NCBI GenBank assembly: GCA_020632395.1
Contig: JACKFQ010000002.1
Location: 172,971-236,970 of the forward strand
From: Candidatus Nomurabacteria bacterium
GTDB taxonomy: Bacteria; Patescibacteriota; Dojkabacteria; SC72; JAHDCA01
DNA length: 64,000 nt
Reading direction: 5' to 3'
Numbering within the stretch: position 1 is the first letter of the stretch; each line of letters starts with the position of its first letter. The notes under the pieces are model-generated. The model did not search any database and had not been told where the DNA came from. It saw nothing but the letters and a program-made list of their open reading frames with translations. A program made the translations under genes and the position numbers. Below, piece by piece: positions 40,928 to 63,730 of this stretch.

Positions 40928-43495
40928 CTACTTTAAGGTCAAAGGAGGTGGATTTGATTTGTTATCCTGTTGAGTACCGGGTTGGATTGCTAGATCAGCA
41001 CGCTTGCTCATCTCCTCGGCAACAATAGTAGCATCACGGCCATACTTCAGTTTCGACAATCTCTTGATCAGCTCTGCAACTTCCTTGTTCTTGGGAAGAT
41101 CGAAACCGGAATTGGGGTATAAAGGTCCGAATCCAGGATCCAAAGAGAACGGTGATGAATATTTCCCATCAGTGATCATTTTTACATAAGCATGGACATT
41201 GGGCTGATTTAGCAGATCGTTGGATGATAAAGTCGGCTCAAATTGCTTTTCGAGGAATTCTGCATCTTCGGGACCGACTCTTGCAACCATCATAGAACCG
41301 ACATTACCGAAAACAGCATCTCGAACCTTTTCAGGCATCTGAGCAATATACTGATTTGCCATAGTAAGGTTCAGATGGTATTTACGAGCTTCTGATAGGA
41401 TAGAAGCAAACTCATCAGTAGCAAAGTTCTGAAACTCATCAACGTAGAAGAAGAAATCTTTTCGGTCTTCCTCAGGGATATCTTGTCTACTCAACGCAGC
41501 ACTGACCAGCTTGGGGATCAACATGACTCCGAGGAACTGGGCATTTTCATCACCGAGTACACCTTTCGAAAGATTTATGATCAGGATCTTCCCGCTATCC
41601 ATTACTTCACGGAAATTGAATGATGACTCTGTTTGTCCGACAATATTTCGTATAGCCATGTTGGTCACAAATCGGTCAAACTTTGAAACTATATACCCTA
41701 GTGTTTCGGATTTTTGTTGTTCAGTTGTCTTGGCGATCTGATCAGTCCAATACCTTTTGACCAGATCATCTTTGATCAATGGAAGCCACTTCTCATTTAC
41801 CCACTTCTCATCTGTAAGGATCCTTACCACTTCTACTAGAGTAGAGCCTTTTTCAGACATAGCCGTAAGCATAGCGTTTCGAACAGCTCTTTCAAGGATA
41901 GGACCTACGATACCCTGTTCATTAGGGTCAAACAGCTTCTTTAGCATTCCGATAAATCCATTTACTACCCTATGTTTATCCTGCTCATTCTGATAATCCA
42001 TAAGATTAAAACCAAATGGTCTCTCAAAATCTCCTGCATTGAAATATATGACATCTTCGGCTCTCTCATGTGGGATCCTAGGGAGGATCATTTCAGCGAG
42101 CTCTCCGTGAGGATCCATTACGCATACACCATCACCATTATAGATATCCTGAATTATCATTCGTAAGAGTGACCAAGACTTACCAGAACCCGTTTGACCT
42201 ATCACATACATATGCCTGCGTCTGTCATCACGTTTGAAGCAAACCGGTTTAGTTTTCCCCAGATATACATTATTTCCTAACCAAACAGTATCAGGCGAGT
42301 TTATGTCCGAATCTACCCAATGTGCAGCAGGAACCTCACGTGATAGCAACCAGTTGATGTTCGGGATCTGGATATTCTTATTTGGGAAGTGATAGAGACC
42401 TGCAAGCTCTTCGACATTGAGGACAGTCTTGGTACTAAGTGGCATACGGCGATATATGACATTGTGCATGAACTCTCTTTCGTCTGAGGTACGAATATCT
42501 GCTTTTTTCAAAGTATTGATACCTGGGTTGGAGAATTGATCAAAGGCACCTATGATATTTGTCACATGCATTTTTGCGATCTCTGTTTCAGGAGCACTCG
42601 CAACTACTCGAATTGCAGCATTAAACCCTATCTTCCCTGACTTTTTAGCAATAGCTTGAAGTTGTTCCTGACTGACGCTGATCCTTTTTTTCTCAGGGTC
42701 TGCATTGTTGCTCTCCACTTTACCTACAAATTTCCGTCCAGCTTTCTGCCATCCCGAATCCGCAGGAGAGAGTACTATCTGTATCAAAGCACCCTCCTTA
42801 TCTCCCATCTTCCCTAGAGATGAGAGGATGTTTGCAAGTGGATCACCTTTAAAATCCTCAGCAACCTTGATCGGATAGTATCGCTCATCTGTGAGATCTA
42901 ACTGGGTGAATGCAACCTTACCTTCTTCATGAAAAATATTATGTTCATCAACTACTGATACCTCTGCATCCTGATATGAACCTAATATCTGTTTCTCTAC
43001 AAGATTTGCCAGTTTCTTTGGGGAATACACAAAAAACCTTATCTCCCCAGGAAGTCCGATGACCTCAAAACTGATACTATTTTTGACTGTGATATGTTTC
43101 TTAAGACCCTTTCCAGCTCCGCCGATCCCATAAAGATTGGCAAACATCTGCTCTGCGACCCCGATCTCTATCTCATTTCCTTTTGGAACTTTTACCTCAA
43201 AGAGTATACCTTCCTTAGTCTTTTCTTCTCGATCTTTCTTTTTTAGATAATTTGAATACAAATATGCAGAAAGACCAGCAACTCCAGCGAGCAGAAGAAT
43301 GAAAACTACAACAAGTATCAAGAGCCCTATCGAAAAGCCCCCTTGATCTGGCTCATATGGGTTATCCGGGTATGTGACATCTTGACCCGGAGTAATATCA
43401 TTACCACCAGGAATCGGAGGTCCTGCTTGTGTTAGTAGGATCTCATCGGATGAATCTATAAATGTAATTAGTGGGACAGTACTTATCATTATCAA
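40928..43495 (-). CDS. T4SS coupling-protein-like ATPase (VirD4/TraD/TraG-type, FtsK/HerA superfamily) with N-terminal membrane anchor
   Basis: TM GLLILVVVFILLLAGVAGLSAYLY. Walker A YVIGQTGSGKSWSLL. Walker B FFFYVDEFQNFATDEF. Then SEARKYHLNLTMANQYIAQM (the coupling-protein RK.G..l.laTQ motif). 855 aa with an extra N-domain of about 400 aa. Confidence 0.55.
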   Translation of the reverse strand: MIMISTVPLITFIDSSDEILLTQAGPPIPGGNDITPGQDVTYPDNPYEPDQGGFSIGLLILVVVFILLLAGVAGLSAYLYSNYLKKKDREEKTKEGILFEVKVPKGNEIEIGVAEQMFANLYGIGGAGKGLKKHITVKNSISFEVIGLPGEIRFFVYSPKKLANLVEKQILGSYQDAEVSVVDEHNIFHEEGKVAFTQLDLTDERYYPIKVAEDFKGDPLANILSSLGKMGDKEGALIQIVLSPADSGWQKAGRKFVGKVESNNADPEKKRISVSQEQLQAIAKKSGKIGFNAAIRVVASAPETEIAKMHVTNIIGAFDQFSNPGINTLKKADIRTSDEREFMHNVIYRRMPLSTKTVLNVEELAGLYHFPNKNIQIPNINWLLSREVPAAHWVDSDINSPDTVWLGNNVYLGKTKPVCFKRDDRRRHMYVIGQTGSGKSWSLLRMIIQDIYNGDGVCVMDPHGELAEMILPRIPHERAEDVIYFNAGDFERPFGFNLMDYQNEQDKHRVVNGFIGMLKKLFDPNEQGIVGPILERAVRNAMLTAMSEKGSTLVEVVRILTDEKWVNEKWLPLIKDDLVKRYWTDQIAKTTEQQKSETLGYIVSKFDRFVTNMAIRNIVGQTESSFNFREVMDSGKILIINLSKGVLGDENAQFLGVMLIPKLVSAALSRQDIPEEDRKDFFFYVDEFQNFATDEFASILSEARKYHLNLTMANQYIAQMPEKVRDAVFGNVGSMMVARVGPEDAEFLEKQFEPTLSSNDLLNQPNVHAYVKMITDGKYSSPFSLDPGFGPLYPNSGFDLPKNKEVAELIKRLSKLKYGRDATIVAEEMSKRADLAIQPGTQQDNKSNPPPLTLK

Positions 43496-43551
43496 ATTTC
43501 AAAAGAGTTCTTGCTTAAGAATATCACAGCGTGGCTATTGATGCACCAGTT

Positions 43552-44244
43552 CTATGATTGGTTGAATGCAGCCCAGATCTTCAATATGATATTTGCAGCC
43601 CATGTTTTCGAACTGTCTGGATCTCCTTGACTACTTACTTGTACAGTACGAAGGAATTGTTGACTAGGTTGATAACCGGCCAGCCTTGGAACATTCATAT
43701 TATTTGTAAATGTTGCACCTGACTCATCTTGTATCCTTTTCACATCTTCCGGACTCTGGACACTCGTTTCATCCTCCGCAAGCTCAACCTGTTGAACTCT
43801 CTCTTTCAGTGCATCAAACCTCTTTTCTACTTCAGACCTCTGATTGATCAAAACCTCACCACCAGGGACTTGAGCTTTTTCATGCTGTTTATCTGGAGAA
43901 GTAGAACCTATATTTCCTTCGACCTGATCTACAAACTGTTCAAATTCGGGTCGTCCTGCAACTGTTAGAGTAGATCCTTCACCTTTTGGTAAGATCTCGT
44001 GAGAGAACAAGAATTCCAGTTTCTGCTGAACGTTCAATGTCGACCATACACTTTCAGGAACGACACCGTACAATCGCTTGGGAAGTGTATCGATATCTAA
44101 AAGGATACCTCTCTGTTCGTAGGTCAATTTTCCCCACATCTCTATACTAACAAGGGTAGAGAGCCTTTCTGGTGGGACATCCAACCTTTTTCGAGCATCC
44201 TGCTCTAATATCTGCTCTTTTGTTACTAATTTTTGATCTGCCAT
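43552..44244 (-). CDS. Hypothetical protein (230 aa), acidic and helical; adjacent to the coupling ATPase
   Basis: Complete ORF with no motif I recognise. Its position suggests a possible T4SS accessory role; this is inference only. Confidence 0.4.
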   Translation of the reverse strand: MADQKLVTKEQILEQDARKRLDVPPERLSTLVSIEMWGKLTYEQRGILLDIDTLPKRLYGVVPESVWSTLNVQQKLEFLFSHEILPKGEGSTLTVAGRPEFEQFVDQVEGNIGSTSPDKQHEKAQVPGGEVLINQRSEVEKRFDALKERVQQVELAEDETSVQSPEDVKRIQDESGATFTNNMNVPRLAGYQPSQQFLRTVQVSSQGDPDSSKTWAANIILKIWAAFNQS

Positions 44245-44300: not shown

Positions 44301-44759
44301 TTATTTTACCATAAATGAGCGTCTCTCTCTATGCAACTCTCTTTCCAGATCCCTTTCTTTGATCCTCTTTTTCTTCTCATACGATCTTTTACCTTTTCCT
44401 AAACCTATCTCTAGCTTTACCATACCTCTTGCTAAAAATACGGATAAAGGAACGATCGTCATTCTATCACTTTCAGCTTTACGTTGTAATTCCCTCAATT
44501 CAGCCCTTTTTAATAGTAGTTTTCTACTTCTAAACGGGTCGTATCCCTCAACAGTTGCATATTTATATTTTGGGATGTCGGCATTCCACAAAAATGCTTC
44601 TCCACCAATTATCTTAACAAATGAATCAGAAATGTTCACTTGACCACTCTTGATCGCTTTGACCTCTGATCCGAGTAGTTGAATACCAGCTTCGTACTTT
44701 TCCTTGATCTCATAATTGAAATAGGCTTTCTTATTTTTGGTTATCAATTTGATTCCCAT
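44301..44759 (-). CDS. smpB: SsrA-binding protein SmpB
   Basis: KKAYFNYEIKEKYEAGIQLLGSEVKAIKSGQVNISDSFV...GYDPFRSRKLLL...EIGLGKGKRSYEKK is a canonical SmpB. Length 152 aa. Confidence 0.9.
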   Translation of the reverse strand: MGIKLITKNKKAYFNYEIKEKYEAGIQLLGSEVKAIKSGQVNISDSFVKIIGGEAFLWNADIPKYKYATVEGYDPFRSRKLLLKRAELRELQRKAESDRMTIVPLSVFLARGMVKLEIGLGKGKRSYEKKKRIKERDLERELHRERRSFMVK

Positions 44760-47464
44760 TATCGTAGTTTTACAGACCAGATCGTTGGCCCATCAAGTAT
44801 GTATAGCCTCGTTTCACCGGTATCAACCACGATATCTGAGACTGAAGAGAATGCAGAATCCCTCTCCCCCCGATAAACCAGACGTGACCTGAGAACCATT
44901 TCTCCCGGATGAAGTCCTGTTGTCTCATCAGGTTTCTCAAATGTCATTATTGAATCTCTATCAGTTTCAAATAGGTATAACTTATATTCGAGATTGATCC
45001 CTGCATACCCTGCTGTTACAGGCCCTATATCCCCTCTCAAGCCACTGATAGACCAAGGGTCTAGGATATATCCACCAACATCACGATTAAAATAGTATCG
45101 ATTGAATGTAGGACTCTCTGTCGAGAGCACATAACCGCTGAAATCTGCAAAGAAATCTGTAGGTACGAGGTTCTGATCCAATTCGAGAAATCGTGAAGCA
45201 AATCCGTACGAACCTGATGAGTATCTGACCGATCTATAAACTGCCAAAGACTTTGCATCAAGCAAATACACAAAGTCGTCCCCTCCTAAGATCGCAAATT
45301 CTGTTATATCCTCGATATTTTGGTCATCCAGATCATCACGTGTAATTCCACTTAATGCAACAAATGACCCTATATCAGATGCACCATTAGAATACGGTGC
45401 CATCAGAACACCAGAGATATCATCATAAACATAAACTCCATCATTCCCAACATCTACATACATCGGTGCCTGAAGAAGACCTTTCTCATCAGGGATTTTT
45501 GAGATAGTTCCAGTGCTGAGATTGTATCTATGTACAGTCTGTAAACCCGGATCAGTGATAAGCAGATACTCGACCAGGTTATCATCACTATATATCGCAA
45601 TATCAGAAGGTGTTTGAGAATTAGTACCTGCGAGAAGATCTTCAAGGACAGAAATGTTACCAGCTGATTCAGAAAGGATAGTAACTTTGTCCAATATGTC
45701 ATAAACTCCTAGAACTGAACCTTCAACCTGAGACAGGAGTTCTTGGTCTTTTTCATTTAATTTGCTTCTATCAAACCCTCCCTCTTCCAATTTCTTTTCT
45801 ACAGACAATAGTTTTAATTGTGCCTGTTCTGGATCTGTCTTTGCCTCTTTGTTTGCCTTTTCCAAGAGGGCAGAAACCTCGTCATAGATCGACAAGAACT
45901 GCTGGTGTACAAGACTTTTTTCTCTTACGTCTTTTGCAGCATTATATCCTGCATAAAGAGCTACGAGTACAAGAACAGTAGAGCCAAGAATGATAAATCT
46001 TTTGTTCCTCAGATTTTTTGTTCTGTAATCTCCTAAACGCATCTTCCTGATATCTGGAGTACCTATCCTAGTCTGCGAGAACTTAGCCCTCAACCGTTTG
46101 AACCAAACCTTCCTTCCATACCGATTTACTAAATACCGGTTGACCCATGCCTTCAGATTAGAGATCACTCTCGAAATGAATTTCTTAGTCCTTAACAGTA
46201 GTGGCATAAGGAAAGTTATGGTGTTTCGGACAAATTTCTTAATATAGAATAAAACCTTTGCAAATGCTGTTGTTGGTATTGGTTCAATAGGTTTGGCAAA
46301 CAAACCATCTGACATAGTTCGTGGTGAAGTGTCAGTTTTTTCAAGGGTATCCCCATGAGAGAGTCCGTTCAAGACACGATCTTCTGCCTCAGATTCATCT
46401 GTATCATACTTTCGCTGACCGACCTTATTGATATTTGCATCCTCATAGCTATTAGACGAAGCAACCTCATCATCTCTGATATCATGACCTTTCTGAACAG
46501 ATGAGAGAGGGATTTCGCTTGTTTTATCAACATCTGTAATGACTGTTTCAGTAGATAAGTTTTCTGTTTCTGATAGAGAGTCGTGTTCCACAGGATCATT
46601 ATCATCCCCTTCAAATTCTGTATATTCCATCATACCCACAGGTGTTTCTTCACTCTGCTCATCTGTAGATGAGAGATCTACTGGTTTAGTTTGCTCAAGG
46701 CCATGAACTTCTTCATGATCTTCATTAACTTCAGCACCTTCTTTATCTTCAGTCTCTTCATTATCTTCAGATAATGACACCACCTCGATCTCTACATCAG
46801 ATACTCCTTCTGCTTCTTTTTCAAATAGAACTACAGTTTGCAGATCAACACCTGTAGATGCAGAAACACATCCTTCACCTAATTCAAACTCGTGAGAATC
46901 GAGTAGTTGCATCATCCCAACAGGTGTGTGTATATCGGTGATATTGAGCTTACCGAGATAGTTTGGTGAAGAAAGCATTAGCACATCATCATCGCTTAGT
47001 TGAGTGCTACCTGTTTGTACATTGTTTTCTTTCAATAACGATGTGACATCCACTAACTCCATCTCATGAAGTATATGAATTTTGGATCCTCCCAGAAAAC
47101 CGAAGTATAGATTATTATCCTGATAGTGACAGGTTATGATATCAAGTTCCACACCATTAGAGGCATCCTCATCATTCTTGATCAACTCTAAAAGCTTTCT
47201 TTGTGCCTCCTCCAAGATCAGCTTCATCACTGATACACTACCCCCATCGTGTTGCATAAACTCGTCTAAGACGCCATTCCAAACAAAACGTGCGATATTA
47301 GATGCATCCAGATCTCCCGGACTATGTACAGATACTAAACCAAGCAAATATCCCCTAGCTGTATCTCCAGGGTCGAAGTGGTGAAAAGCACTTGTGACAC
47401 GATCCCCTCCCGCACTGCGAGAGAGAAAATCCTTTATGTATACTTTCATACTACTATTATGCAA
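44759..47464 (-). CDS. Large hypothetical protein (901 aa): cytoplasmic N-domain, acidic linker, single TM, extracellular beta-rich C-domain
   Basis: TM near residue 480 (FIILGSTVLVLVALYAGY). Acidic low-complexity region (EDKEGAEVNEDHEE...). The C-terminal half is rich in aromatic/Gly turns suggestive of beta-propeller/beta-sandwich repeats. No catalytic motif recognised. Confidence 0.45.
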   Translation of the reverse strand: MHNSSMKVYIKDFLSRSAGGDRVTSAFHHFDPGDTARGYLLGLVSVHSPGDLDASNIARFVWNGVLDEFMQHDGGSVSVMKLILEEAQRKLLELIKNDEDASNGVELDIITCHYQDNNLYFGFLGGSKIHILHEMELVDVTSLLKENNVQTGSTQLSDDDVLMLSSPNYLGKLNITDIHTPVGMMQLLDSHEFELGEGCVSASTGVDLQTVVLFEKEAEGVSDVEIEVVSLSEDNEETEDKEGAEVNEDHEEVHGLEQTKPVDLSSTDEQSEETPVGMMEYTEFEGDDNDPVEHDSLSETENLSTETVITDVDKTSEIPLSSVQKGHDIRDDEVASSNSYEDANINKVGQRKYDTDESEAEDRVLNGLSHGDTLEKTDTSPRTMSDGLFAKPIEPIPTTAFAKVLFYIKKFVRNTITFLMPLLLRTKKFISRVISNLKAWVNRYLVNRYGRKVWFKRLRAKFSQTRIGTPDIRKMRLGDYRTKNLRNKRFIILGSTVLVLVALYAGYNAAKDVREKSLVHQQFLSIYDEVSALLEKANKEAKTDPEQAQLKLLSVEKKLEEGGFDRSKLNEKDQELLSQVEGSVLGVYDILDKVTILSESAGNISVLEDLLAGTNSQTPSDIAIYSDDNLVEYLLITDPGLQTVHRYNLSTGTISKIPDEKGLLQAPMYVDVGNDGVYVYDDISGVLMAPYSNGASDIGSFVALSGITRDDLDDQNIEDITEFAILGGDDFVYLLDAKSLAVYRSVRYSSGSYGFASRFLELDQNLVPTDFFADFSGYVLSTESPTFNRYYFNRDVGGYILDPWSISGLRGDIGPVTAGYAGINLEYKLYLFETDRDSIMTFEKPDETTGLHPGEMVLRSRLVYRGERDSAFSSVSDIVVDTGETRLYILDGPTIWSVKLR

Positions 47465-47714
47465 GAAGTATCAGTATCATTGCAAGGAATCCACCGATCA
47501 ATGATATGAGAAGGTGTATAGTAGTTGCAAACATTACCTTGCCAGAATGTGGTGTTTTTATTGTATCAGCGAGTATTCTTACCCTAAGCAAGAGTAAAAA
47601 TGAATAAAGAATGTAACCAACTAATAGTACGAAAAACAGAAGTTTGAAAACAAAATTGATCCCCAAAAAAGATACTGAAGGTGTTGGTCCTGAGAGTCCG
47701 TCTAAAAAGTTCAT
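47457..47714 (-). CDS. Small 2-TM membrane protein (85 aa)
   Basis: Two hydrophobic helices (FVFKLLFFVLLVGYILYSFLLLL and TTIHLLISLIGGFLAMILILLA). Overlaps neighbours by 1-8 nt. Confidence 0.4.
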   Translation of the reverse strand: MNFLDGLSGPTPSVSFLGINFVFKLLFFVLLVGYILYSFLLLLRVRILADTIKTPHSGKVMFATTIHLLISLIGGFLAMILILLA

Positions 47715-48349
47715 TAGATCTGTCCTTTCTGTTTCATTTCAAGTAAATCTAATAAGGTATCCTGAACATCTCGTGGTCTAGGGATGTTGATGAATTCAAA
47801 TTCCGGCTTTGAACCAGCTGTTTGGATATAAACAGTACCGTAATCAAAAATAGATCCCCAAATTCCTGCAACAGTATGAGTGACATCTTCGATCTGCTCT
47901 AATTGTGCCTCAGAAAATCTGTGAAATAGTACGTTAGAGAAATCTACATCTACTATCCTTTGATCTGTAATGATACTCACTGAAAAGAACCACTTAACAA
48001 AGGTATCAAATGCGATCGTGATGGCCAGTAGTATAAAGAATATCGACCCCCCAGCACCTAAACTAGCTAAGGATGTTCCCTCTACACCTATCGCACCCAG
48101 TACAGAAAAAAAGAACAGTGGGAAGAGCAATAAAAAGATCACTCCAAGGATATTTAAGATCAAAGATGCCGGATCTCTCCTGACTATCAACACAACACAT
48201 TCCCCAGAATCCTTTCCCTGAAAATCCACCTTCTGAGGAAATGAACAAAAAGAGGAAAAACCTGATTTATCAGTATCATTCTGGATCTTACCTATGAAAG
48301 AAAGTCCCGGCTTAAGGAATCTCTCGGGTATCACGGTCTTTTTAGCCAT
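47714..48349 (-). CDS. Membrane protein with a bacterial PH-like (YdbS/YdbT-type) architecture; function unknown
   Basis: Two adjacent TM helices (ILNILGVIFLLLFPLFFFSVLGAIGV; GGSIFFILLAITIAFDTFVKWFF) followed by a soluble beta-rich domain. Confidence 0.4.
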   Translation of the reverse strand: MAKKTVIPERFLKPGLSFIGKIQNDTDKSGFSSFCSFPQKVDFQGKDSGECVVLIVRRDPASLILNILGVIFLLLFPLFFFSVLGAIGVEGTSLASLGAGGSIFFILLAITIAFDTFVKWFFSVSIITDQRIVDVDFSNVLFHRFSEAQLEQIEDVTHTVAGIWGSIFDYGTVYIQTAGSKPEFEFINIPRPRDVQDTLLDLLEMKQKGQI

Positions 48350-48403
48350 ACACCAGTATATAATATCTTATATAGGATTATAACACATTTAGTATCGTAT
48401 TTC

Positions 48404-50206: not shown

Positions 50207-50214
50207 AATGTCGA

Positions 50215-50880
50215 TCAGTAGTTTTTCACTTTATCAGACATCGAAACGGTATTGTATGCCTCTTCCTTATTGAATCTGTCATACCGTCTGAATACTGCCA
50301 ATGTACCTGCACCGATCATAAGCAGTGCCATACCCGCAACTGCAGGGTAATCATCCAAGAAGGAGGCTTGTGGAAGTGTCGTAGTAGTGTAAGAAGTACC
50401 AGAGGGAACATAATTTGAGATAGTATAATTGCCACCAACAAGTGAGTCGACCACAACTGAATCATCCGCATTCTGCATTGTCATACTGACAGTTCCGTTA
50501 CCTGTTGTACGAAAGACCAATTTTGCTATCGTGCCACTATTTGGTAGTTTTCCATCAGACTGAACACTCGCCAGACACAAAATACTTAAACGCCCAGAAG
50601 TAGTTTTATTTACAACAAGGGTTCCACAACCTAACGTTCCAGCAGAATAGCTAGAAAACTCTACAGGTCCAGTGTAGATCAGATCTATGTCAAATCCAAC
50701 TACTGGGTCACCTGTATTGTTTACCACGACATCTATGAAGATATTTTGAGAAAACGTGCCTGTCGCAGGAGAAAGATTGATCGCTGCTCCGGCATAGACA
50801 CTCTGCAATGGGGAAAATAGGAGTAGAAACATCACTACTGCGACTTTGGATAGAAAGACTGGAGTTGTGAGTATTTTCAT
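50215..50880 (-). CDS. Secreted beta-rich protein with cleavable signal peptide and a C-terminal motif-TM-basic tail (LPQAS..hydrophobic..RRYDR)
   Basis: Signal peptide VAVVMFLLLFSPLQSVYAGA. Ig/cohesin-like Thr/Gly/Val-rich body. C-terminus TTTLPQASFLDDYPAVAGMALLMIGAGTLAVFRRYDRFNKEE... resembles a sorting signal, but the motif is not LPXTG and the tail is long. Confidence 0.45.
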   Translation of the reverse strand: MKILTTPVFLSKVAVVMFLLLFSPLQSVYAGAAINLSPATGTFSQNIFIDVVVNNTGDPVVGFDIDLIYTGPVEFSSYSAGTLGCGTLVVNKTTSGRLSILCLASVQSDGKLPNSGTIAKLVFRTTGNGTVSMTMQNADDSVVVDSLVGGNYTISNYVPSGTSYTTTTLPQASFLDDYPAVAGMALLMIGAGTLAVFRRYDRFNKEEAYNTVSMSDKVKNY

Positions 50881-53510: not shown

Positions 53511-53881
53511 GGTATGTTCGGCAAATTTAATAGGTTCTGAATGATCACTAAAACAGCTACAGAGAGTATGATCAGACCGAAGCCAAGTATAGCATTTGTT
53601 AAAACCTCCCTAGCCTGTCCGAGTTTCTCAGGATCTCCTTGACTAGTGATAAGTAGGAACCCTGCATAGCCACTCAAACCGATCAGTGCAAAAACAGAGA
53701 GCGGTATAGATAACTCAAGAACCCCTTTCACGAAAGTAGTTTGGTCAGTTGCCGCTGAAATATCATTTATTCTGTCGCTTAAAACATCCGCACGAGCCAC
53801 AAAAGGCGTGCTAAATGACACGAACAAGATGAACATGGTGAACGCCATTACTAATTTGTACTTCGAAGTTGTAGTTTTCAT
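53507..53881 (-). CDS. VirB2/TrbC-like T4SS pilin paralog 6 (first gene of the array)
   Basis: Signal peptide LVMAFTMFILFVSFSTPFVARA, then ..LSIPLSVFALIGLSGYAGFLLITSQGDPEKLGQAREVLTNAILGFGLIILSVAVLVII. Confidence 0.65.
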   Translation of the reverse strand: MKTTTSKYKLVMAFTMFILFVSFSTPFVARADVLSDRINDISAATDQTTFVKGVLELSIPLSVFALIGLSGYAGFLLITSQGDPEKLGQAREVLTNAILGFGLIILSVAVLVIIQNLLNLPNIP

Positions 53882-56900: not shown

Positions 56901-57038
56901 TTCTCCAGACCTTAACAGATCGATTATTCGCTGGGTGATGACTGCGGTTTTGCCTGTACCTGCGCCAGCAATTATCAGGAGCGGAGAACCCCTGTGTTTT
57001 ACTGCTGACAGCTGTTCATCATTTAATTTGATCTCCAT
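53919..57038 (-). CDS. UvrD/PcrA-family helicase fused to a C-terminal Cas4/AddB-type PD-(D/E)xK nuclease with a 4-Cys cluster
   Basis: Helicase motifs: LLIIAGAGTGKT (I), ILVDEFQDTN (II), VTVVGDDDQAIYKFRGA, SNYRS (IV), VMSVHRSKGLEF (VI). C-terminal nuclease: ETCPKRYKY...GMIDRIDVLEEKNGQKIVELIDYKTGK...QLAIYSIV...FHCSYCDYREIC. Confidence 0.8.
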   Translation of the reverse strand: MEIKLNDEQLSAVKHRGSPLLIIAGAGTGKTAVITQRIIDLLRSGEAKASEILALTFTEKASSEMIERVDQEMPIGYEEVDIMTFHSFCDSILRQDGLYIGLDIDFDLMSEAQSYIFFRRHLFEFPLDELRPTGKPSANITAILKHFSRLQDEDVFPEDYRSYASTLPETSEEEIAMKKQALELAGTYEAYTKLKISESNLDFGDLIMQTLRLLRERPNILQKYHQKYKYILVDEFQDTNYTQSVLVNLLALGQTVEKSSLQERNSANVTVVGDDDQAIYKFRGAAISNILHFKDAYPKAKRVVLTSNYRSRQGILDSAYQLIKNNDPDRLEVTESVDKRLISRKVFDQDIAEPVKLLVAETGSEEADLVAREILRLTGNIDKVNGGSDIVKKQFDDKGQAMFVDVDNAEREVMRFSDIAILSRANSHAEPFVQALKHYGIPFKYAGPKGLYSRPEIAELISYLRILADHTDDLSMYGLLKMDLWRLTARELVDIMRSARRLKTPVMRFLEDQWSCTVGEDLSIDGEPSNLLKEIVSEEHREHLKELLQLIGKGMSMLRSGSSIGETLFEYFKESGIMKSLLSKEDDAQALFQVQNISKYFEMIKSFEDSNHGASVSDYVDYLNYSIEIGENPSTESDALEGYDAVNIMSVHRSKGLEFPVVFLVNLVSERFPTRNRGDSIPIPDALIKDHIADVDTSEEHRREERRLFYVGATRAQELLYLTAARFYGDAKRAKKPSVFLDELLNRKVVEEFGADKDSANEKSDFVVHVSTENDDIEFKQLRGLDPQTVSYSQLDTYETCPKRYKYSYIYKIPGRPSSSLAFGLSIHNSLRSFYSQLKNYQEGLQGFAKEPQLNDLLQYYDQKWITEGYDSLEHEKARKEFGQSILKDFYREQFDPQSVTVGLEVSFRYQLKDIILKGMIDRIDVLEEKNGQKIVELIDYKTGKLKSEADVRDNVQLAIYSIVAEEVFGYKVRSASLIFVEHGAKISVNIGQERKDEVKEHILHLVERIRQMDFVATPGFHCSYCDYREICEDALADI

Positions 57039-57050: not shown

Positions 57051-57860
57051 TCATTTAACAGATGGGGTTGGCTTTGAAATATCAAAGTCTCGTAATTTCT
57101 CTTGTCGAAAATGAGAAGGGTAGAATTCTATCTTTCCAGATAAATACCCCTTGAATAACCTCTTAAACTCTGGTTTATGACCAAAAATCAGCATATAAAG
57201 TAGTTGTGCTAGAAATGCAATTATTTCAAAGGGAAAAAGTAGGACTGACATCTTTTTCAAGGGCGAGTTAGATATTTGAGTAGGCAGAGTATTCACACCA
57301 AATTTCGAGACTAATTCCGAATTCGATCTGATCAGAGCGTTTTTAGGTAATACACCATACACCTTCTCAAGATAAACAAGTTCATTGAACGTAAAGATGT
57401 CATGCTCAGACATTTGCATACCTCGTTCTTCAACGATCATATTTATACAATATTTATCTTTCTGATCGATATCTCCGTACCACACTGCCTTATTACCCAA
57501 AAGCAGTTTCACCACACCCCTTACTATCCATGCGGTGTGATCTGTACAGACTAGGAAAACATCGATATCATCGTTTTCTTTTGCAATTCCTGCTGCAACA
57601 GAACCCGATATCCCAACAAATCTAATAAAAGGAACATTAGCAATGGTTAGAAGCTCTTTCTTGGCTTTTTTTAATTTTCGTTCACTCGCCATTGAACCCT
57701 TCCATTTTACAGGAATATCATGATCTTGGATGACCTTACGGACATTCGGAGATCCTCCCCACATCTCAAAAATGTGTTGTGCATCAAGCTGTCCATGCAT
57801 CGAATGACGGAACTCCTTCAAATCACCGATTCCTTTGTTAACATCCCTTAATCTTGACAC
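57051..57860 (-). CDS. Nucleotidyltransferase-fold protein (pol-beta-like GS...DxD motif); function unknown
   Basis: FIRFVGISGSVAAGIAKENDDIDVFLVCTD carries the minimal nucleotidyltransferase signature. No HEPN-like partner is visible. Confidence 0.4.
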   Translation of the reverse strand: MSRLRDVNKGIGDLKEFRHSMHGQLDAQHIFEMWGGSPNVRKVIQDHDIPVKWKGSMASERKLKKAKKELLTIANVPFIRFVGISGSVAAGIAKENDDIDVFLVCTDHTAWIVRGVVKLLLGNKAVWYGDIDQKDKYCINMIVEERGMQMSEHDIFTFNELVYLEKVYGVLPKNALIRSNSELVSKFGVNTLPTQISNSPLKKMSVLLFPFEIIAFLAQLLYMLIFGHKPEFKRLFKGYLSGKIEFYPSHFRQEKLRDFDISKPTPSVK

Positions 57861-57927: not shown

Positions 57928-59472
57928 ATGAGGCAACACCCGATCCCGCAAAACATATTAGACATTGAGTTCAAGCTGTTTACCAAGTTCACTATACGTG
58001 AATTTGCGTATATGGCTATCGGTATTGGGTTTGGCGGTATCTTCCTATATCTCTTTTCAAAAGGAGAGATCCCCGCTGTCATTGCACTACCAGTTTTCCT
58101 CATATCATCTGGGATAGGATTATTCTTGGGATTAGTCCCTATTAACGATCAAAATGCAGATGTGTTCCTGAGGAACTATTTCCTTGCAATCTCAAGACCA
58201 ACCCAAAGAGTATGGAAAGGAGAGCTATTTGACGAAAAGGTACAAGTGATTGCCCAACAGAAAGGTGTTTCGCTTGGAACCACAGGGACTATGGATAGAG
58301 ATGCAAATCTGAAATCTAACTCTAAGGTTATAGGTGGTACTGCAAAGAATCTCCCCACTACACAATTTATCGAAGAAGAAACTTTGTCAGAGATCGAGGA
58401 GGACGAAGCCGAACAGCTCGAACTTATCGATCAGATCGCAAAACAACAATTTGTTATGAATGCAGGTGACGATCTTTCAACAAGCCCTACCAAATCAACG
58501 GATACCAGGGAGATGACTAGCTCTACCCAAGCAGTAAACCCAAGTGAAGAAAAAGGCTCTAGCGGAGCAGTATTATCTGACGACGCAGTGCCATCTAGCG
58601 GAACCCTACCATCTGACGACACAGTGCCATCTGCAGAAGCGACAAATACCGTTGAGGCAACGAATCCTAGCGATACAACGAATCTCACCGTGGTAACAGA
58701 TCGTCCCCAAACAACAAGTTCTTCTGAAACAACGAATTTTAAAACGGTCGAAGAATCAGCCAATCCAACGGATGCGATAGAGCCTCAGGTCGCAAAATTT
58801 ACAGATGAGTTAGCTCCCAGAACAGAACTCGAGTTTACTTCTCCTGACCAGGAGACACCCGCTACGAACAATTTAGATGATGGCGGATTCTCTACTCAGA
58901 ACAACTCTCATCGATCTGACAAACCTCTCGTATCAGTAAACAATCCTTCCCTATCACCAGAAGCCATACCCGCATCATTAGACAACCCTTCCCTGTCACC
59001 AGGCGCCCCTTACAGATCCGAATATAATCCTCCTACATCAGTAGACAACCCTCTTGATCAGATCAAACCTGTACCAACAGTTCAAAATATACGATCCGAG
59101 CATGTAGATAAAGTTCCGGCAACCGGAGGATCCATTCAAGAGAACGATCTGATCACAATAACAAGCGAAACCGCAAAACCGGTTGCTACACAGGTGGAAG
59201 ATTACCCAGAGGACCCGGGTAATATTGCTATGTACCTGACAAATACGAACGGAGACCCGATCCCTCAAGCTATGACCCTGATAAAAGATAGTGCTGGTTC
59301 GATACTGCAAGTTATCCAATCCGACCCTCAAGGTTTGGTCTTACCTAACAAAAAGTTTGTAAAAGGGAAATACCTTGCTGAAATAAAACATGACAATGCA
59401 CACTTCCCTCGTGTAAACTTCATATTGGATGGAAACAAGTTACCAGTTGTAAATATAACCTCTATAAACTGA
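57928..59472 (+). CDS. PrgI/VirB3-like 2-TM membrane protein with a long Ser/Thr/Pro-rich extracytoplasmic extension
   Basis: N-terminal NILDIEFKLFTKFTIREFAYMAIGIGFGGIFLYLF....VIALPVFLISSGIGLFLGLVP has two TM helices spaced as in the PrgI family. The remaining 400 aa are low-complexity S/T/P/N-rich. It lies immediately upstream of the VirB4 pieces. Confidence 0.4.
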   Translation: MRQHPIPQNILDIEFKLFTKFTIREFAYMAIGIGFGGIFLYLFSKGEIPAVIALPVFLISSGIGLFLGLVPINDQNADVFLRNYFLAISRPTQRVWKGELFDEKVQVIAQQKGVSLGTTGTMDRDANLKSNSKVIGGTAKNLPTTQFIEEETLSEIEEDEAEQLELIDQIAKQQFVMNAGDDLSTSPTKSTDTREMTSSTQAVNPSEEKGSSGAVLSDDAVPSSGTLPSDDTVPSAEATNTVEATNPSDTTNLTVVTDRPQTTSSSETTNFKTVEESANPTDAIEPQVAKFTDELAPRTELEFTSPDQETPATNNLDDGGFSTQNNSHRSDKPLVSVNNPSLSPEAIPASLDNPSLSPGAPYRSEYNPPTSVDNPLDQIKPVPTVQNIRSEHVDKVPATGGSIQENDLITITSETAKPVATQVEDYPEDPGNIAMYLTNTNGDPIPQAMTLIKDSAGSILQVIQSDPQGLVLPNKKFVKGKYLAEIKHDNAHFPRVNFILDGNKLPVVNITSIN

Positions 59473-59476
59473 AGCC

Positions 59477-60106
59477 TTGAAAGCACAAACTAGAGCCAGG
59501 ATCACAACACCAACACAGGATCATCTTGATGTCCTAGATATCAAAGATGATCTTATCATAAGCAAAAATGGTACTGTCTCGATAGTCATCAAAACCAATG
59601 CCGTGAACTTTGATCTTCTTTCTGAACAGGAACAGGATAACAAGATATATGCTTTTGCAGGTATGTTGAATTCATTGAACTTCCATTTACAAATTCTGGT
59701 CATGACCGAAAGGATCGATATCGGTAATTACATAGAGTACTTACAAGCCCAGGCTCAGAGACAGATGTCTGACGGACTCAGACATCAGCTGTCGATCTAC
59801 ACTCAATTCATACAGAATCTTATCGTCACAAACGATGTATTAGATAAGAATTTCTATATCGTGGTACCTTATAACTCCGGAGGGGCAGCGGTGATTGGGG
59901 CTAAGATACGAAAGAACAACAACACACAACAATTACTCTCAGAAGAACAGAAACTTCGAATAATCGAACAGGGTAGGATCTTCCTACTTCCGAAGCGTGA
60001 CCATATCCTAAAACAACTAGGTCGGATGGGATTGATAGGGCATCAACTCACCACTACAGAACTGATCGAGCTTTTTTATAGTATTTATAATCCAGAGGAA
60101 GATTAA
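59477..60106 (+). CDS. VirB4/TraC-family N-terminal domain encoded as a separate ORF
   Basis: LDVLDIKDDLIISKNGTVSIVIKTNAVNFDLLSEQEQDNKIYAFAGMLNSLNFHLQILVMTERID matches the VirB4 N-domain pattern (I.....l.t.dG.l.....v.g..f.l.seee......f...L..L.....qi....r). The stop overlaps the next start (TAATG at 60104-60108). Confidence 0.55.
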   Translation: MKAQTRARITTPTQDHLDVLDIKDDLIISKNGTVSIVIKTNAVNFDLLSEQEQDNKIYAFAGMLNSLNFHLQILVMTERIDIGNYIEYLQAQAQRQMSDGLRHQLSIYTQFIQNLIVTNDVLDKNFYIVVPYNSGGAAVIGAKIRKNNNTQQLLSEEQKLRIIEQGRIFLLPKRDHILKQLGRMGLIGHQLTTTELIELFYSIYNPEED

Positions 60107-62526
60107 TGCCAGATCCATTTCAAAAAGATAATAATAGATTTAACAAACAGCCTTTGAGCAAGGCTCAAGAGATGTTGCAAAAGCGTGCTGACAAACTGAA
60201 ACCTGCAGAGGCTTTAGACCGTGTAAGGCTTGATGCAAAGGAGGAAAAGGATCGACGGGAGGCTCTCAAGGAGAAAGAGAGATTAGAAGACACTAGGATA
60301 AATAAAAGACGCTTCGGGATCCTCCAAGATCTGGTCAATATAGTCACTTTCAGGAAGAAGGATCCTGATGCACCACCAAAACCAAAAGCCACTTCAACTG
60401 ATATCGAAGGTCTAACACTCCAAGACATCATTGCTCCGATAGACATGGAGATAGATTTCAACACTTTGGAAGTAGGAGAATGGTTCTTTAGGACATTCTT
60501 TATCAGTGGTTATCCTAGGTTTGTTGGTCCTAACTGGTTGTCCCCTATTGTTAATTTCGAAAATTCTTTGAGGATAAGCACCTTTTACTACCCGGTGGAC
60601 TCCAAGGTTATCCTTCAGAAACTAAAGAAGAAGATCGGTGAGATGGAAGCGACTTTGTATTCACAAATGGAAGGTCGTAAGGTAGTTGACGCATCAATGA
60701 AAGTTGCACTCACTGATGCTCAACAATTACAAGATTCTATTGCTGAAGGGACTGAGAAATTCTTCCATTTCGGAATGTATGTCACAATTCAAAGCAAGGA
60801 TAAAGAGCAACTGGAAAAGATCTCCAAAAATGTCGTATCTACACTGGCATCAATAAATGTCACAGCAAAACCTGCACTTCTCCAGCAAGAGCAAGGTTTT
60901 ATTAGTACACAACCACTCGGTCTCGACAAACTGTTCATCACCAGAAACATGGATACGACATCACTTGCTACTACATTCCCATTTGTCACAAGTGAGCTGA
61001 CCATGGATCATGGGATCATGTACGGCATCAACCAACACAATCGCAGTTTGGTGGTATTCGACAGATTTGATATGGAAAATGCGAATACAGTAGTGTTTGC
61101 AAAATCTGGTGCAGGAAAAAGTTATTTTGTGAAATTAGAAGCAGTACGTAGCATGATGCTTGGTACAGAACTGATCATTATCGATCCTGAGAGAGAATAT
61201 GAAAGGCTCGCAGCTTCTGTGAACGGTTCATATATTTCATTCTCACAAGATAAAGGCGACAAGATGAATCCTTTCGAACTTTCAGGGCTTGGGGAGGATG
61301 AGGATGAGTTAAGAATGAAGATGCTTTCATTACAAGGTTTCTTCAAGCTGATGCTCGGAGAACTTAATAGTATAGAACTGGCTATCTTGGATCGTGCACT
61401 GATCCTTACATACCGAGAGAAAGGGATCACGCTAGACCCATCTACCCAGAAAAATGCTAACTACCCTCTTCTTGAAGATCTGTATAAGGTCCTAAAGGGT
61501 ATGGCGGAATCAGAAGCTCGCAGTATGTCGAGTCGGCTAGAAAGATATATCATCGGTAGTGCTGCGGGTGTTTTCAATGAAAAAAGCACCATAGAGATAA
61601 ATAATCCATTCACAGTCTTTAGTATCCGAGATATGCCTGAAGAATTGCGACCTATGTCAATGTATCTCATGTTGGATTATATATGGACTAAGATCAGAAA
61701 AGATCAGAAAAGAAGACTCCTTGTCGTTGATGAGGCTTGGTACATGATGCAAAATGAGGATTCAGCGAAATTCATGTACAGTATCGCAAAAAGAGCTAGG
61801 AAGTATTACCTTGGCTTAACAACGATAACTCAAGATGTTGACGACTTCCTCCAGAACGATATGGGGAGGGCTATCATAACCAACTCAGCGATCCAATTCC
61901 TGATGAAACAAAGTCCAACTGCTGTGGAACGATTACAGAAAGTGTTCAATTTATCAGAGGGAGAGCGACAATACTTGCTTACGGCCGACAAAGGACAGGG
62001 GCTTTTCTTTGCAGGACAGAACCATGTCGCTATTATGGTGGTTTCCAGCCAGGCTGAGCATGAATTGATCACAACTGATCCAAAGGATCTCGAACGAATG
62101 AAAAAAGAAGGAGCCTTAGACAAATCGTTAGAGGAGTTAGCTCAGATGTATGAACCTCCGGCAATGCAACAACCGATCAAGGACAGTGTAGATAGAGAGC
62201 AAAGTCAAAATATACAGAAAGCGGTTCAAACAAGAAAGCAAACTGTCGAGCAGATGATCGAGGAGAAATTGAGACTCGGAACTAGATCAGGTGAAAGCGA
62301 TGGGGAACTCGACACCACACTTACCGAAAGCCAGAGACAACAGCTGTACACATCACTCACCGATCAGGTTGTAGCAGCTCGAAAAGAGATGAATAGAGGG
62401 CGTACTCACCTTACACCTCAAGGGATCGTAGGCGACCTAAATGACATTTCAGATACAACAGGTGATAATGATAAACAGAGTGATTCAACTAATCCTACTG
62501 GCAAAGACAAAGAAAGAGTAAATTGA
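60106..62526 (+). CDS. VirB4/TrbE/CagE-family T4SS ATPase (main body)
   Basis: Walker A VVFAKSGAGKSYFV. Walker B with the family-specific DEAW motif (LLVVDEAWYMM). ARKYYLGLTTITQDVDDF (RK.G..l.l.TQ...D). EWFFRTFFISGYP in the N-proximal region. 806 aa. Confidence 0.8.
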   Translation: MPDPFQKDNNRFNKQPLSKAQEMLQKRADKLKPAEALDRVRLDAKEEKDRREALKEKERLEDTRINKRRFGILQDLVNIVTFRKKDPDAPPKPKATSTDIEGLTLQDIIAPIDMEIDFNTLEVGEWFFRTFFISGYPRFVGPNWLSPIVNFENSLRISTFYYPVDSKVILQKLKKKIGEMEATLYSQMEGRKVVDASMKVALTDAQQLQDSIAEGTEKFFHFGMYVTIQSKDKEQLEKISKNVVSTLASINVTAKPALLQQEQGFISTQPLGLDKLFITRNMDTTSLATTFPFVTSELTMDHGIMYGINQHNRSLVVFDRFDMENANTVVFAKSGAGKSYFVKLEAVRSMMLGTELIIIDPEREYERLAASVNGSYISFSQDKGDKMNPFELSGLGEDEDELRMKMLSLQGFFKLMLGELNSIELAILDRALILTYREKGITLDPSTQKNANYPLLEDLYKVLKGMAESEARSMSSRLERYIIGSAAGVFNEKSTIEINNPFTVFSIRDMPEELRPMSMYLMLDYIWTKIRKDQKRRLLVVDEAWYMMQNEDSAKFMYSIAKRARKYYLGLTTITQDVDDFLQNDMGRAIITNSAIQFLMKQSPTAVERLQKVFNLSEGERQYLLTADKGQGLFFAGQNHVAIMVVSSQAEHELITTDPKDLERMKKEGALDKSLEELAQMYEPPAMQQPIKDSVDREQSQNIQKAVQTRKQTVEQMIEEKLRLGTRSGESDGELDTTLTESQRQQLYTSLTDQVVAARKEMNRGRTHLTPQGIVGDLNDISDTTGDNDKQSDSTNPTGKDKERVN

Positions 62527-62541
62527 TCGAGATTTTTACAA

Positions 62542-62778
62542 ATGGGTCTATTCGACTTTTTCCTAAAAAAGAATAATGACGACACTGCAGATATACCAGT
62601 AAGCCAGGCTGTAGATCCTCGATCTTTGTCCTCTACAAAACAGGATAAAGATCTAAAGGCACTTATGTCATTTGAAGAGAAGATCAACAACTCGACTCAA
62701 ACACTCACAGAAGAAGATGGTACTACGAAACAGAAAGATCTAGGGTTGTCACTTCAGAACCCATTTCGAGGGATATAG
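62542..62778 (+). CDS. Small hypothetical protein (78 aa), hydrophilic
   Basis: Complete ORF 16 bp after virB4. No recognisable motif. Kept only because of its tight spacing in an operon-like context. Confidence 0.3.
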   Translation: MGLFDFFLKKNNDDTADIPVSQAVDPRSLSSTKQDKDLKALMSFEEKINNSTQTLTEEDGTTKQKDLGLSLQNPFRGI

Positions 62779-62923
62779 GTGACCTCATCATGTAAAACTC
62801 ACATCAATTTCTGAAATAGTAAGGTGTTCGAACCGATAGAGATCCAGAATGGATAACGAGATGGATGTTCTCAATAATTTTCTGACGATATCAAAAATTC
62901 CCAAAAACCATTTATATATATTT

Positions 62924-63730
62924 CTATTCAGGGTCTTCTAAACCAGCATTTGGGTCTACGACATGTTCTGCATTATCTTCATATTCACCATAAAAAGCCT
63001 TGGGATCAGGCAATCCGTCAATACACACCTCCCTCTCTAAATACTCAGTAGGATCTACCAGATCCCAATGAATATTTTTCAGTAAGCTAAAGTGAAGATG
63101 CACACCTCCCCTGACTTCTCCGGTTTGTCCCATCTTCGCGATAATTTGTCCACGACCAACCTCATCCCCTTCCTCAACATATATCTCATGAAGATGCCCA
63201 TAAACAGATATCAAACCATTCTCATGTTCTATCATAACTGTACGTGCCAAACCAGATCCTCCAGAATACACACCTGCAGGCGGACAAATTCCATAACAAC
63301 CTGCCAGTATAACCTTTCCTTTCTCTCCTGCCAGTATATTTGGATATGTGTGATCTGCTATATCGACGCCATTATGTACTTCATCAAAACATTGGGTTAC
63401 AGTACCAACCCCTCCCTCAACAGGCCAAGCCAAAGAGAACCCTTGATCAAGCTCTGCGATACTAGGATCAAGAGGTTTACCCTTGAGGATCTTATACCTT
63501 CCTATGTCATCGGCAATCTCTTCTATCTCCAAATCTGTTGTTTCTATAGATCCTTCCGGGTCTATCGATGTATCCGATACATTGATCGTACGATCAGATA
63601 CTGTATCTCCTAAGACAGAAGGGGTTGTTATTCCCACTGTTCCAAAGATGAAGTCGGCAGAGCTGATCATCACGATAGATAGCATGATATAAACAATCAC
63701 CCCAGAGATAACATAATCAAAGCGACTCAT
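62924..63730 (-). CDS. M23 (LytM-type) peptidoglycan metallo-endopeptidase, membrane-anchored
   Basis: TM VISGVIVYIMLSIVMIS. M23 motifs HNGVDIAD (HxGxD), VYGHLHEI, and GQTGEVRGGVHLHFSL (G.TG...G.HLHF). Confidence 0.8.
   Translation of the reverse strand: MSRFDYVISGVIVYIMLSIVMISSADFIFGTVGITTPSVLGDTVSDRTINVSDTSIDPEGSIETTDLEIEEIADDIGRYKILKGKPLDPSIAELDQGFSLAWPVEGGVGTVTQCFDEVHNGVDIADHTYPNILAGEKGKVILAGCYGICPPAGVYSGGSGLARTVMIEHENGLISVYGHLHEIYVEEGDEVGRGQIIAKMGQTGEVRGGVHLHFSLLKNIHWDLVDPTEYLEREVCIDGLPDPKAFYGEYEDNAEHVVDPNAGLEDPE

Follow-up and report, generated by a model that had tools for sequence, protein, structure and literature searches.

What does a type IV secretion system (T4SS) do when it sits on a chromosome among housekeeping genes with no relaxase beside it: does it transfer DNA, import DNA, or make contact with a host cell? 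This question is raised by a 64-kb stretch of contig JACKFQ010000002.1 (positions 172,971 to 236,970 of the forward strand, hereafter the window; all coordinates below refer to it) from assembly GCA_020632395.1, labelled Candidatus Nomurabacteria bacterium, in which a preliminary description had recognized a Gram-positive-style T4SS-like locus at 40928-63730. We consider it highly probable that this region is a chromosomal, relaxase-less T4SS typical of Patescibacteria, in which a two-piece VirB4 ATPase anchored by PrgI builds a pilus or channel for host contact, not for conjugation. Such a system has already been described for Patescibacteria, and the window is a further example from Dojkabacteria that matches it feature by feature. 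Family searches covered every open reading frame (ORF) of at least 100 aa in the window; the family assignments of the preliminary description held in these profile searches, and every ORF boundary it gave matched a mechanically generated ORF list. The genes on which our reading rests are the following.

57928-59472, plus strand: PrgI/VirB3-like membrane protein, 514 aa (Pfam PrgI, PF12666).

59477-60106, plus strand: TrsD-like protein of 209 aa, homologous to the N-terminal domain of VirB4 but encoded by a gene of its own (NCBIfam; AlphaFold2 (AF2) model with Foldseek).

60106-62526, plus strand: VirB4-family ATPase, 806 aa, of the Gram-positive CD1110 or MPF-FATA (mating-pair formation, class FATA) type (NF045971).

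62542-62778, plus strand: small acidic ORF, 78 aa (positional conservation directly 3' of VirB4).

51604-53881, minus strand: tandem array of six divergent VirB2-like T4SS pilin genes (PF18895, T4SS_pilin).

The four plus-strand genes (57928-62778) are tightly packed, with gaps of 4, -1, and 15 nt, and the stop codon of the TrsD-like gene overlaps the VirB4 start codon. The VirB4 protein scored 381 bits against NCBIfam NF045971 (VirB4-like conjugal transfer ATPase, CD1110 family), above the curated cut-off of 325, over profile positions 177-733 of 752. It also matched Pfam P-loop_TraG (6.8e-27) and carries the Walker A motif AKSGAGKS and the Walker B motif LLVVDE; among solved structures the Gram-positive VirB4 4ag5 is nearest (1.8e-47), with TrwK far behind (1.6e-4). 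The PrgI domain of the first gene scored 30.1 bits against a gathering threshold (GA) of 27 over residues 5-95, a segment with two predicted transmembrane (TM) helices. These scores support the MPF-FATA-like affinity that had been proposed, and the order of PrgI before a two-piece VirB4 is real and is kept in relatives. The PrgI domain is followed by a linker rich in S, T, P, D, and E (residues ~170-400) and a C-terminal domain of ~100 aa, for which Pfam returned nothing usable at E≤10. With 514 aa the protein is longer than its relatives (273-335 aa), the surplus being an expansion of this low-complexity linker; the N-terminal part is 53-63% and the C-terminal part 26-30% conserved between them. 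The fourth gene, the 78-aa ORF, had no Pfam match, and an ORF of 77-102 aa occupied the same post-VirB4 position in every Dojkabacteria locus examined, with ~33% identity in loci L001 and L002.

The preliminary description had called the VirB4 gene split. As a statement of descent this stands: the 806-aa ATPase lacks an N-terminal segment, and the upstream TrsD-like gene supplies it. The 209-aa protein matched positions 112-233 of the NCBIfam VirB4_plasma profile (8e-8), while VirB4 matched positions 292-892 of the same model. When the 209-aa protein was fused in silico to VirB4 residues 96-670, the product aligned in one stretch over CD1110 positions 21-733 of 752 with 394 bits, a result also seen with two other VirB4 models. 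An AF2 model of the TrsD-like protein (predicted local distance difference test (pLDDT) score 70) gave 14 top Foldseek matches in the PDB that were all TrwK/VirB4 of R388, with E-values of 1.4e-3 to 4e-2 and the next match at 0.38; searching PDB sequences with the TrsD alignment as a profile returned nothing even at E≤10, and fold comparison alone gave matches. As a statement of damage the term does not hold. Because the TrsD-like protein has 508 stand-alone homologues, of which the best 120 are 190-220 aa long and, besides the 100% self-match, 57-75% identical, the ORF is a stable gene, not the product of a frameshift, and TrsD and VirB4 form a conserved two-gene arrangement. This arrangement was reported to be the most common T4SS component in Patescibacteria (PMC12102498).

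The pilin array lies 4-8 kb from virB4. Five of its six ORFs scored above the GA for PF18895; the sixth (53507-53881) reached 22.1 bits against 26.6. All six proteins can be aligned; two TM helices flank the shared loop Y..G...SGGD..K..KA..G, and identity to the first pilin is 27-54%. The array is divided into two sets of three by a terminator-like hairpin (52681-52654). Arrays of five pilins were found at the equivalent position in loci L001, L003-L007, and L090. One member (52359-52628, minus strand, 89 aa) consists of the two-TM core alone, without an N-terminal leader or signal segment, and this leaderless form is conserved, its homologue in CP129478.1 being similarly short (92 aa).

Next, the genomic setting of the locus was considered. 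The rest of the window is core genome, encoding PNPase, IF-2, NusA, DnaJ, sortase, AlaRS, RuvX, MltG, LytR-CpsA-Psr, and holA, which fits a small chromosome of the Patescibacteria, or candidate phyla radiation (CPR). No relaxase, integrase, or transposase family was found among the ORFs searched, a repeat search of the window revealed no direct repeats bracketing the region, and neither tRNA genes nor Rfam matches were present in the window. The direct repeats that do occur are tandem repeats inside surface-protein genes, similarity between paralogues, or chance matches of 17-29 nt. GC content is flat across the window (0.39-0.44), and promoter-like sites were no commoner than in shuffled sequence (38 versus 36.2). 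Among the 120 best VirB4 homologues (62-100% identity), most of which are unnamed, every source name was a CPR lineage (Dojkabacteria, WS6, or Nomurabacteria), and the named best homologues of the TrsD-like protein came from Dojkabacteria, WS6, or a few 'Nomurabacteria'. Because the close protein relatives with names are Dojkabacteria or WS6, the NCBI label 'Candidatus Nomurabacteria bacterium' is probably wrong, and the genome is probably that of a Candidatus Dojkabacteria (WS6).

This setting bears on the idea that the locus is an integrative and conjugative element (ICE), or the decayed remnant of one, with transfer genes that still serve horizontal DNA transfer. Both ATPases of the region, VirB4 and a coupling-protein-like ATPase described below, are closest to families of Gram-positive conjugative transposons (CD1110 and CD1115), and the PrgI-VirB4-hydrolase order echoes prgI-prgJ-prgK of pCF10. 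Nevertheless, because the window lacks relaxase, integrase, and transposase genes, shows neither bracketing repeats nor a GC anomaly, and is otherwise filled with housekeeping genes, the region is chromosomally fixed and is not an ICE or conjugative element, in agreement with the earlier proposal. The tRNA target that an ICE might use is missing as well; single-copy smpB, SpoIID, and repair genes lie inside the block, which holA, LytR, MltG, RuvX, and AlaRS abut; the gene order is common to related genomes down to 64% identity of the coupling-protein-like ATPase; and the Patescibacteria VirB4 proteins form a clade of their own with rare inter-class transfer (PMC12102498). We regard a present or recent ICE, or its decayed remnant, as extremely improbable.

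The operon and the pilin array are embedded among further genes, listed here from the low-coordinate end.

40928-43495, minus strand: type IV coupling protein (T4CP)-like ATPase of the VirD4/TraG superfamily, 855 aa (T4SS-DNA_transf, TrwB_AAD_bind, TraG-D_C).

47457-50206, minus strand: SpoIID-domain protein (600 aa), bPH_2 protein with two TM helices (211 aa), and DUF5657 protein with two TM helices (85 aa) (Pfam).

50215-51500, minus strand: a pair of small beta-rich proteins, 221 and 200 aa, exported or anchored and encoded between SpoIID and the pilins (TM and signal predictions).

53919-57038, minus strand: fusion of a UvrD/PcrA-type helicase with a PD-(D/E)XK (Cas4-like) nuclease (UvrD-helicase, UvrD_C, PDDEXK_1).

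57051-57860, minus strand: putative nucleotidyltransferase (NTase)-fold protein, 269 aa, with a C-terminal TM helix (weak NTP_transf_2/Polbeta Pfam matches).

62924-63730, minus strand: membrane-anchored M23 peptidoglycan endopeptidase (Peptidase_M23, 77 bits).

To which of these genes the system extends was addressed by comparison with related genomes. In close relatives, here termed clade A (T4CP 64-79% identical; VirB4 71% identical in CP129478.1), the whole gene order recurs: T4CP, a 230-aa protein, SmpB, a protein of ~900 aa, DUF5657, bPH_2, SpoIID, in some cases the two beta-rich proteins, 5-6 pilins, the helicase-nuclease, the NTase-fold gene divergent from PrgI, TrsD, VirB4, the small ORF, M23, and a Lon-like AAA protein. 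A second group of Dojkabacteria, clade B (VirB4 65-68% identical), retains only the divergent NTase-fold gene with PrgI, TrsD, VirB4, and the small ORF; the outer anchors, LytR-holA on one side and NTase-PrgI on the other, enclose unrelated genes there (S20, LepA, and an SMC_N protein). Therefore, the invariant unit in Dojkabacteria is the four-gene operon plus the divergent NTase-fold gene. The synteny that had been suggested as a check on a core function is thus complete in clade A and confined to the core in clade B.

Experimental work on such a system comes from one species only, Southlakia epibionticum ML1. Its cluster SEML1_0006-0019, reported by Wang et al. (2023), encodes a lysozyme, a peptidase, VirB4, a protein in the TrsD position, PrgI, two large proteins (one VirB6-like), an NTF2-like protein, and six pilins, and was noted to lack a recognizable coupling protein or relaxase; most of these genes, including all six pilins, are essential for epibiotic growth (PMC10633639). 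Like the locus described here, the cluster is chromosomal, lacks a relaxase, keeps the order PrgI, TrsD-position protein, and VirB4, has six divergent PF18895 pilins and a peptidoglycan hydrolase near VirB4, and the genome encodes a T4CP homologue of the same architecture, with the P-loop domain starting near residue 400. The two loci also differ. The S. epibionticum genes are compactly clustered and encode a VirB6-like protein (~1,088 aa), a protein of 998 aa, and an NTF2-like protein resembling VirB8, none of which was found in this window. Here the pilins are parted from the VirB4 operon by the helicase-nuclease and NTase genes, the hydrolase near VirB4 is small, of the M23 type, and encoded on the opposite strand, and the T4CP gene is found within 19 genes of virB4 but far from it in S. 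epibionticum. A survey of 3,035 Patescibacteria genomes, Dojkabacteria among them, by Quinonero-Coronel et al. (2025) found a monophyletic Patescibacteria VirB4 clade nested in MPF-FATA, frequent TrsD and PrgI beside VirB4, arrays of 2-11 VirB2-like genes, and systems placed on the chromosome with hardly any relaxases (PMC12102498).

More distant systems share individual features with the locus. The MPF-FATA systems (pGO1/pSK41 trsC-trsD-trsE, pCF10 prgI-prgJ-prgK, and Clostridioides difficile CTn2) have in common with it a VirB4 that passes the CD1110 model, an upstream PrgI, a T4CP most similar to CD1115, and a monoderm architecture without VirB7, VirB9, and VirB10, and the pGO1 subclass likewise has a separate TrsD-type N-terminal module ahead of VirB4. 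Unlike these conjugative systems, the locus has no relaxase, oriT, or integrase, does not lie on a mobile element, encodes VirB2-like pilins, which the Gram-positive systems lack, and has neither a PrgB-type adhesin nor a multidomain PrgK/TrsG-type hydrolase in the operon, its M23 protein being single-domain and on the opposite strand. Tandem divergent VirB2-like paralogues also occur in the VirB/D4 (MPF-T) systems of Bartonella and Anaplasma, and by this analogy the multiple pilins may serve surface variation or host-range adaptation; those systems, however, are diderm, possess VirB7, VirB9, and VirB10, and belong to another VirB4 clade, represented by the weak TrwK match given above. With Ced of Sulfolobales and ComB of Helicobacter the locus shares a chromosomal VirB4-family ATPase without a relaxase, but the CedB model, with a cut-off of 700 bits, gave only 62, the CedD matches (30 and 21 bits) fell far short of the 600 required, and no CedA-like partner was identified.

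The T4CP-like ATPase had been counted as the coupling ATPase of the machine. Its identity as a member of the superfamily was supported: T4SS-DNA_transf (PF02534) scored 45.3 bits (GA 20.1) and TrwB_AAD_bind (PF10412) 27.9 bits (GA 20.5), these and TraG-D_C all fall within residues 417-748 of 855, and the Walker A (GQTGSGKS) and Walker B (FFYVDE) motifs are intact. The protein has one N-terminal TM helix, then a domain of ~340 aa with no family match in Pfam at E≤10, then the P-loop domain; its PDB match was TrwB at 1.6e-3. However, it failed all curated NCBIfam T4CP equivalogs, the best being CD1115 with 55 bits against 250. That it belongs to the machine is doubtful. In this genome, as in its close relatives, the gene lies 16.6 kb (18 genes) from virB4, and the same architecture occurs in other CPR classes and in SEML1_0293 of S. 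epibionticum. Among 71 more distant CPR loci (T4CP identity 31-42%), labelled Peregrinibacteria, Gracilibacteria, and other CPR groups, none had VirB4, PrgI, or TrsD within 10 kb. Instead, ruvX immediately preceded the orthologue, in the same orientation, in at least 21 loci (L029, L033, L040, L043, L044, L046, L047, L049, L050, L052, L053, L056-L058, L060, L062, L064, L067, L069, L072, and L076; T4CP at ~10001 where the flanks are complete) and mltG in one; a Gracilibacteria locus (L043) has it between L9/RuvX and PAP2/PGK. In the published survey only 148 of 5,713 Patescibacteria T4CP homologues were near virB4, and the S. epibionticum orthologue, unlinked to the T4SS, was reported to be non-essential (PMC12102498). 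Because orthologues occupy housekeeping contexts and the S. epibionticum copy is non-essential, we list this ATPase as a doubtful part; it probably represents a gene in its own right, conserved broadly across CPR, that the machine does not require. Tandem pairs of T4CP genes were seen in loci L011, L012, and L080. The occurrence of the T4CP in genomes that lack VirB4 likewise speaks against co-function, and the ruvX-linked loci free of nearby T4SS genes, with the tandem pairs, suggest a T4SS-independent, possibly DNA-related role for this near-universal CPR ATPase.

The helicase-nuclease next to the pilins had been proposed to process incoming DNA, for which we found no positive evidence. Its Pfam domains are clear (UvrD-helicase, 1.2e-71; UvrD_C; PDDEXK_1, 1.6e-35), and in NCBIfam the PcrA, Rep, UvrD, and AddA models all stayed below their equivalog cut-offs, the best being repair helicase models of the PcrA/UvrD/AddA type. 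It adjoins the T4SS in clade A only, is not in the T4SS neighbourhood of clade B, and in another CPR genome a comparable gene has unrelated neighbours. Because repair-type models match best and the adjacency is restricted to the first clade, the protein is most likely a repair or recombination enzyme and a mere neighbour of the T4SS. These findings, together with those on the T4CP, are relevant to a broader proposal, namely that the T4SS imports DNA and scavenges nucleotides in the manner of ComB or Ced, with host DNA entering via the pilus by means of VirB4 and the T4CP-like ATPase and then being processed by the helicase-nuclease. Such a role would suit CPR bacteria, which lack nucleotide synthesis (PMC10633639), and would account for a T4CP-like ATPase with intact Walker motifs so close to VirB4, a rare linkage in CPR, for the helicase-nuclease abutting the pilin array in clade A, and for the CedB and CedD matches, weak as they are; the lack of a relaxase, too, makes conjugative DNA export unlikely. 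However, the Ced scores are far below their cut-offs, the helicase-nuclease and the T4CP both part from VirB4 in other genomes, and in S. epibionticum transformation depends on ComEC, comEC deletion abolishing competence without affecting viability, while the T4SS is essential (PMC12857230) and the T4CP is not (PMC12102498). DNA import is thus improbable as the function of this locus, and host contact through a pilus or channel remains the reading we prefer.

How many of the remaining neighbours take part in that host-contact machine is less clear-cut. The M23 peptidase has an N-terminal TM helix and both the HxxxD and HxH motifs, and its gene is convergent with the VirB4 operon; it is kept downstream of VirB4 in L001, and an ABC transporter takes its place in clade B. 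By its proximity it is a possible VirB1 substitute. The NTase-fold gene is divergent from prgI and adjoins it in all Dojkabacteria loci seen (L001, L002, L082, L083, and L088). The fold assignment is put forward mainly on an invariant GSVAAG...DDID motif in the alignment (GS...DxD); the AF2 model is of low confidence (pLDDT 51), its core weakly matching ANT/AadA/MNT in Foldseek, and a word-based homologue search returned five proteins. Because a distant homologue in another CPR genome sits away from any T4SS, the link between this gene and the T4SS is lineage-specific and putative.

The SpoIID protein had been regarded as a gene that merely sits inside the region. It does lie there, but SpoIID-bPH_2-DUF5657 recurs beside pilin arrays. 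A scan of metagenome contigs with the bPH_2 alignment, in which 38 loci of at least 7 kb were counted (loci L099-L151), revealed SpoIID directly upstream of bPH_2 in 25 of the 38, SmpB a few kilobases away in 23, and pilin-like genes beside SpoIID in 15, even at 29-40% bPH_2 identity. In five distant loci that were inspected, bPH_2 was followed by a two-TM ORF of 72-98 aa resembling DUF5657. The same set, extending to SmpB, also recurs without detectable pilins in many loci, and the bPH_2 genes of S. epibionticum are not near its T4SS. Judging from gene order, the three genes form an old envelope module that often stands beside pilin arrays, and as part of this recurrent neighbourhood SpoIID may be more than a housekeeping interloper. 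Other genes of this segment behave differently. The 221- and 200-aa beta-rich proteins are variable accessories, L001 having both, L003 the 200-aa protein alone, and L004-L007 none; the 221-aa protein gave a weak cohesin-like signal (E 0.021). SmpB was confirmed inside the region by Pfam. Between smpB and DUF5657, a 901-aa protein (44759-47464, minus strand) keeps its place in closer relatives at 24-37% identity. It comprises an N-terminal globular domain, a long acidic linker, a TM helix at residues ~490-508, and a C-terminal half that looks beta-rich; it matched no Pfam or NCBIfam family, and its two halves gave nothing usable in Pfam at E≤10.

These observations can be taken to mean that only the VirB4 operon and the pilin array make up the system, and that the T4CP, M23, SpoIID, helicase-nuclease, and NTase genes are inherited neighbourhood in a small, gene-dense genome. 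This overlaps with our own explanation and differs from it only in the number of accessory parts counted. The wholly different gene set between the clade B anchors, the SpoIID-to-SmpB loci devoid of pilins, the ties of the T4CP to ruvX or mltG elsewhere, and the unlinked NTase homologue all agree with it, but the persistence of pilin-like genes beside SpoIID at low bPH_2 identity, the NTase gene divergent from prgI in every Dojkabacteria locus seen, and the finding that peptidoglycan hydrolases beside VirB4 are essential in S. epibionticum (PMC12102498) do not. We hold this restricted view to be possible, though less likely than not. At the other extreme, the T4CP-like ATPase and the helicase-nuclease might act with the pilins and VirB4 as a relaxase-independent importer of host DNA or nucleotides, with SpoIID-bPH_2-DUF5657 as a hitherto unrecognized pilus-biogenesis or wall-crossing factor; this is unlikely, but if it were true, the Dojkabacteria T4SS would be wired differently from the Saccharibacteria model.

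Returning to the host-contact T4SS that we favour, we infer by homology how its parts might work together. The two-TM PrgI-like protein would anchor to the membrane the VirB4 ATPase, whose TrsD-like N-terminal module and ATPase body are encoded by two collinear genes. The ATPase would power extraction and polymerization of VirB2-like pilins from the six-gene array 4 kb away, giving a pilus or channel across the monoderm envelope, and the wall would be opened locally by nearby hydrolases (the M23 peptidase and possibly the SpoIID-domain protein) and not by a canonical VirB1. By analogy with S. epibionticum, the machine most likely mediates contact-dependent exchange with a host cell, either export of proteins or signals or uptake of host molecules; a 2025 review speculated that signals, or material taken up from the host, pass through the pilus (PMC12857230).

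Several points weigh against this scheme. The TrsD-like protein reached only 28 bits against NCBIfam TrsD, for which the curated cut-off is 200, and its fold comparison combined modest E-values (1.4e-3 at best) with a model of pLDDT 70. Clade B has no pilin array beside VirB4, so that co-function of the two loci is presumed. The M23 gene is on the strand opposite to the VirB4 operon and is missing from that position in clade B. No Dojkabacteria member has been cultured, and the function is transferred from another class, Saccharimonadia. Finally, neither a VirB6-like polytopic protein nor an NTF2/VirB8-like protein was recognized in the 64-kb window, and a complete translocon is accordingly not demonstrated. 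The protein at 9931-11901, the only polytopic protein in the window and earlier named as a VirB6 candidate, proved to be a DUF4153 protein (1.6e-48) with no TrbL/VirB6 signal at E≤10. The 221- and 200-aa proteins were considered as VirB8 and rejected, appearing all-beta by eye from their sequences, with the cohesin-like match mentioned above, and not NTF2-like. The absence of both components is typical, because VirB6 and VirB8 homologues were reported in only a minority of Patescibacteria, VirB6 occurring in Saccharimonadia but seldom in several other classes, and VirB6 was not treated as obligatory (PMC12102498).

Further features were observed elsewhere in the window. Four large, N-terminally anchored proteins of 865-1,436 aa, all encoded on the minus strand (755-3352, 4246-7932, 19360-23331, and 23339-27649), have little or no Pfam signal and end in related C-terminal sequences (...YGFDFP...YFVRVLQGQG.W.P.. 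and ...G.D....D..GIFL.VD.GVGYW.P..); the last two are tandem paralogues, and the four look like a surface-protein family typical of episymbionts. Tandem repeats of 12 nt lie inside giant surface-protein genes at 5878-6093 and 33842-34101, the latter encoding (TSPS)n and TPPA/TPPV runs that are probably variable linkers. An 8-nt tandem repeat, AGGATATG, present in ~10 copies at 39671-39758, starts at the 3' end of the gene for LytR-CpsA-Psr (last position 39680) and takes up most of the interval up to holA (39784); this tract could be slippage-prone or regulatory.

No T4SS before that of Patescibacteria had been shown to be essential for the bacterium carrying it. The window adds no new kind of system to this picture, but provides a clean example from Dojkabacteria, in which the invariant genes (the divergent NTase-fold gene with PrgI, TrsD, VirB4, and the small ORF) can be told apart from mere neighbours, and in which TrsD and VirB4 together correspond in silico to one unsplit VirB4. 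It also flags candidate accessory genes, namely the 78-aa ORF that follows VirB4, the NTase-fold gene divergent from prgI, and the SpoIID-bPH_2-DUF5657 set next to pilin arrays, and it cautions against counting the CPR T4CP homologue by default as a part of the T4SS.

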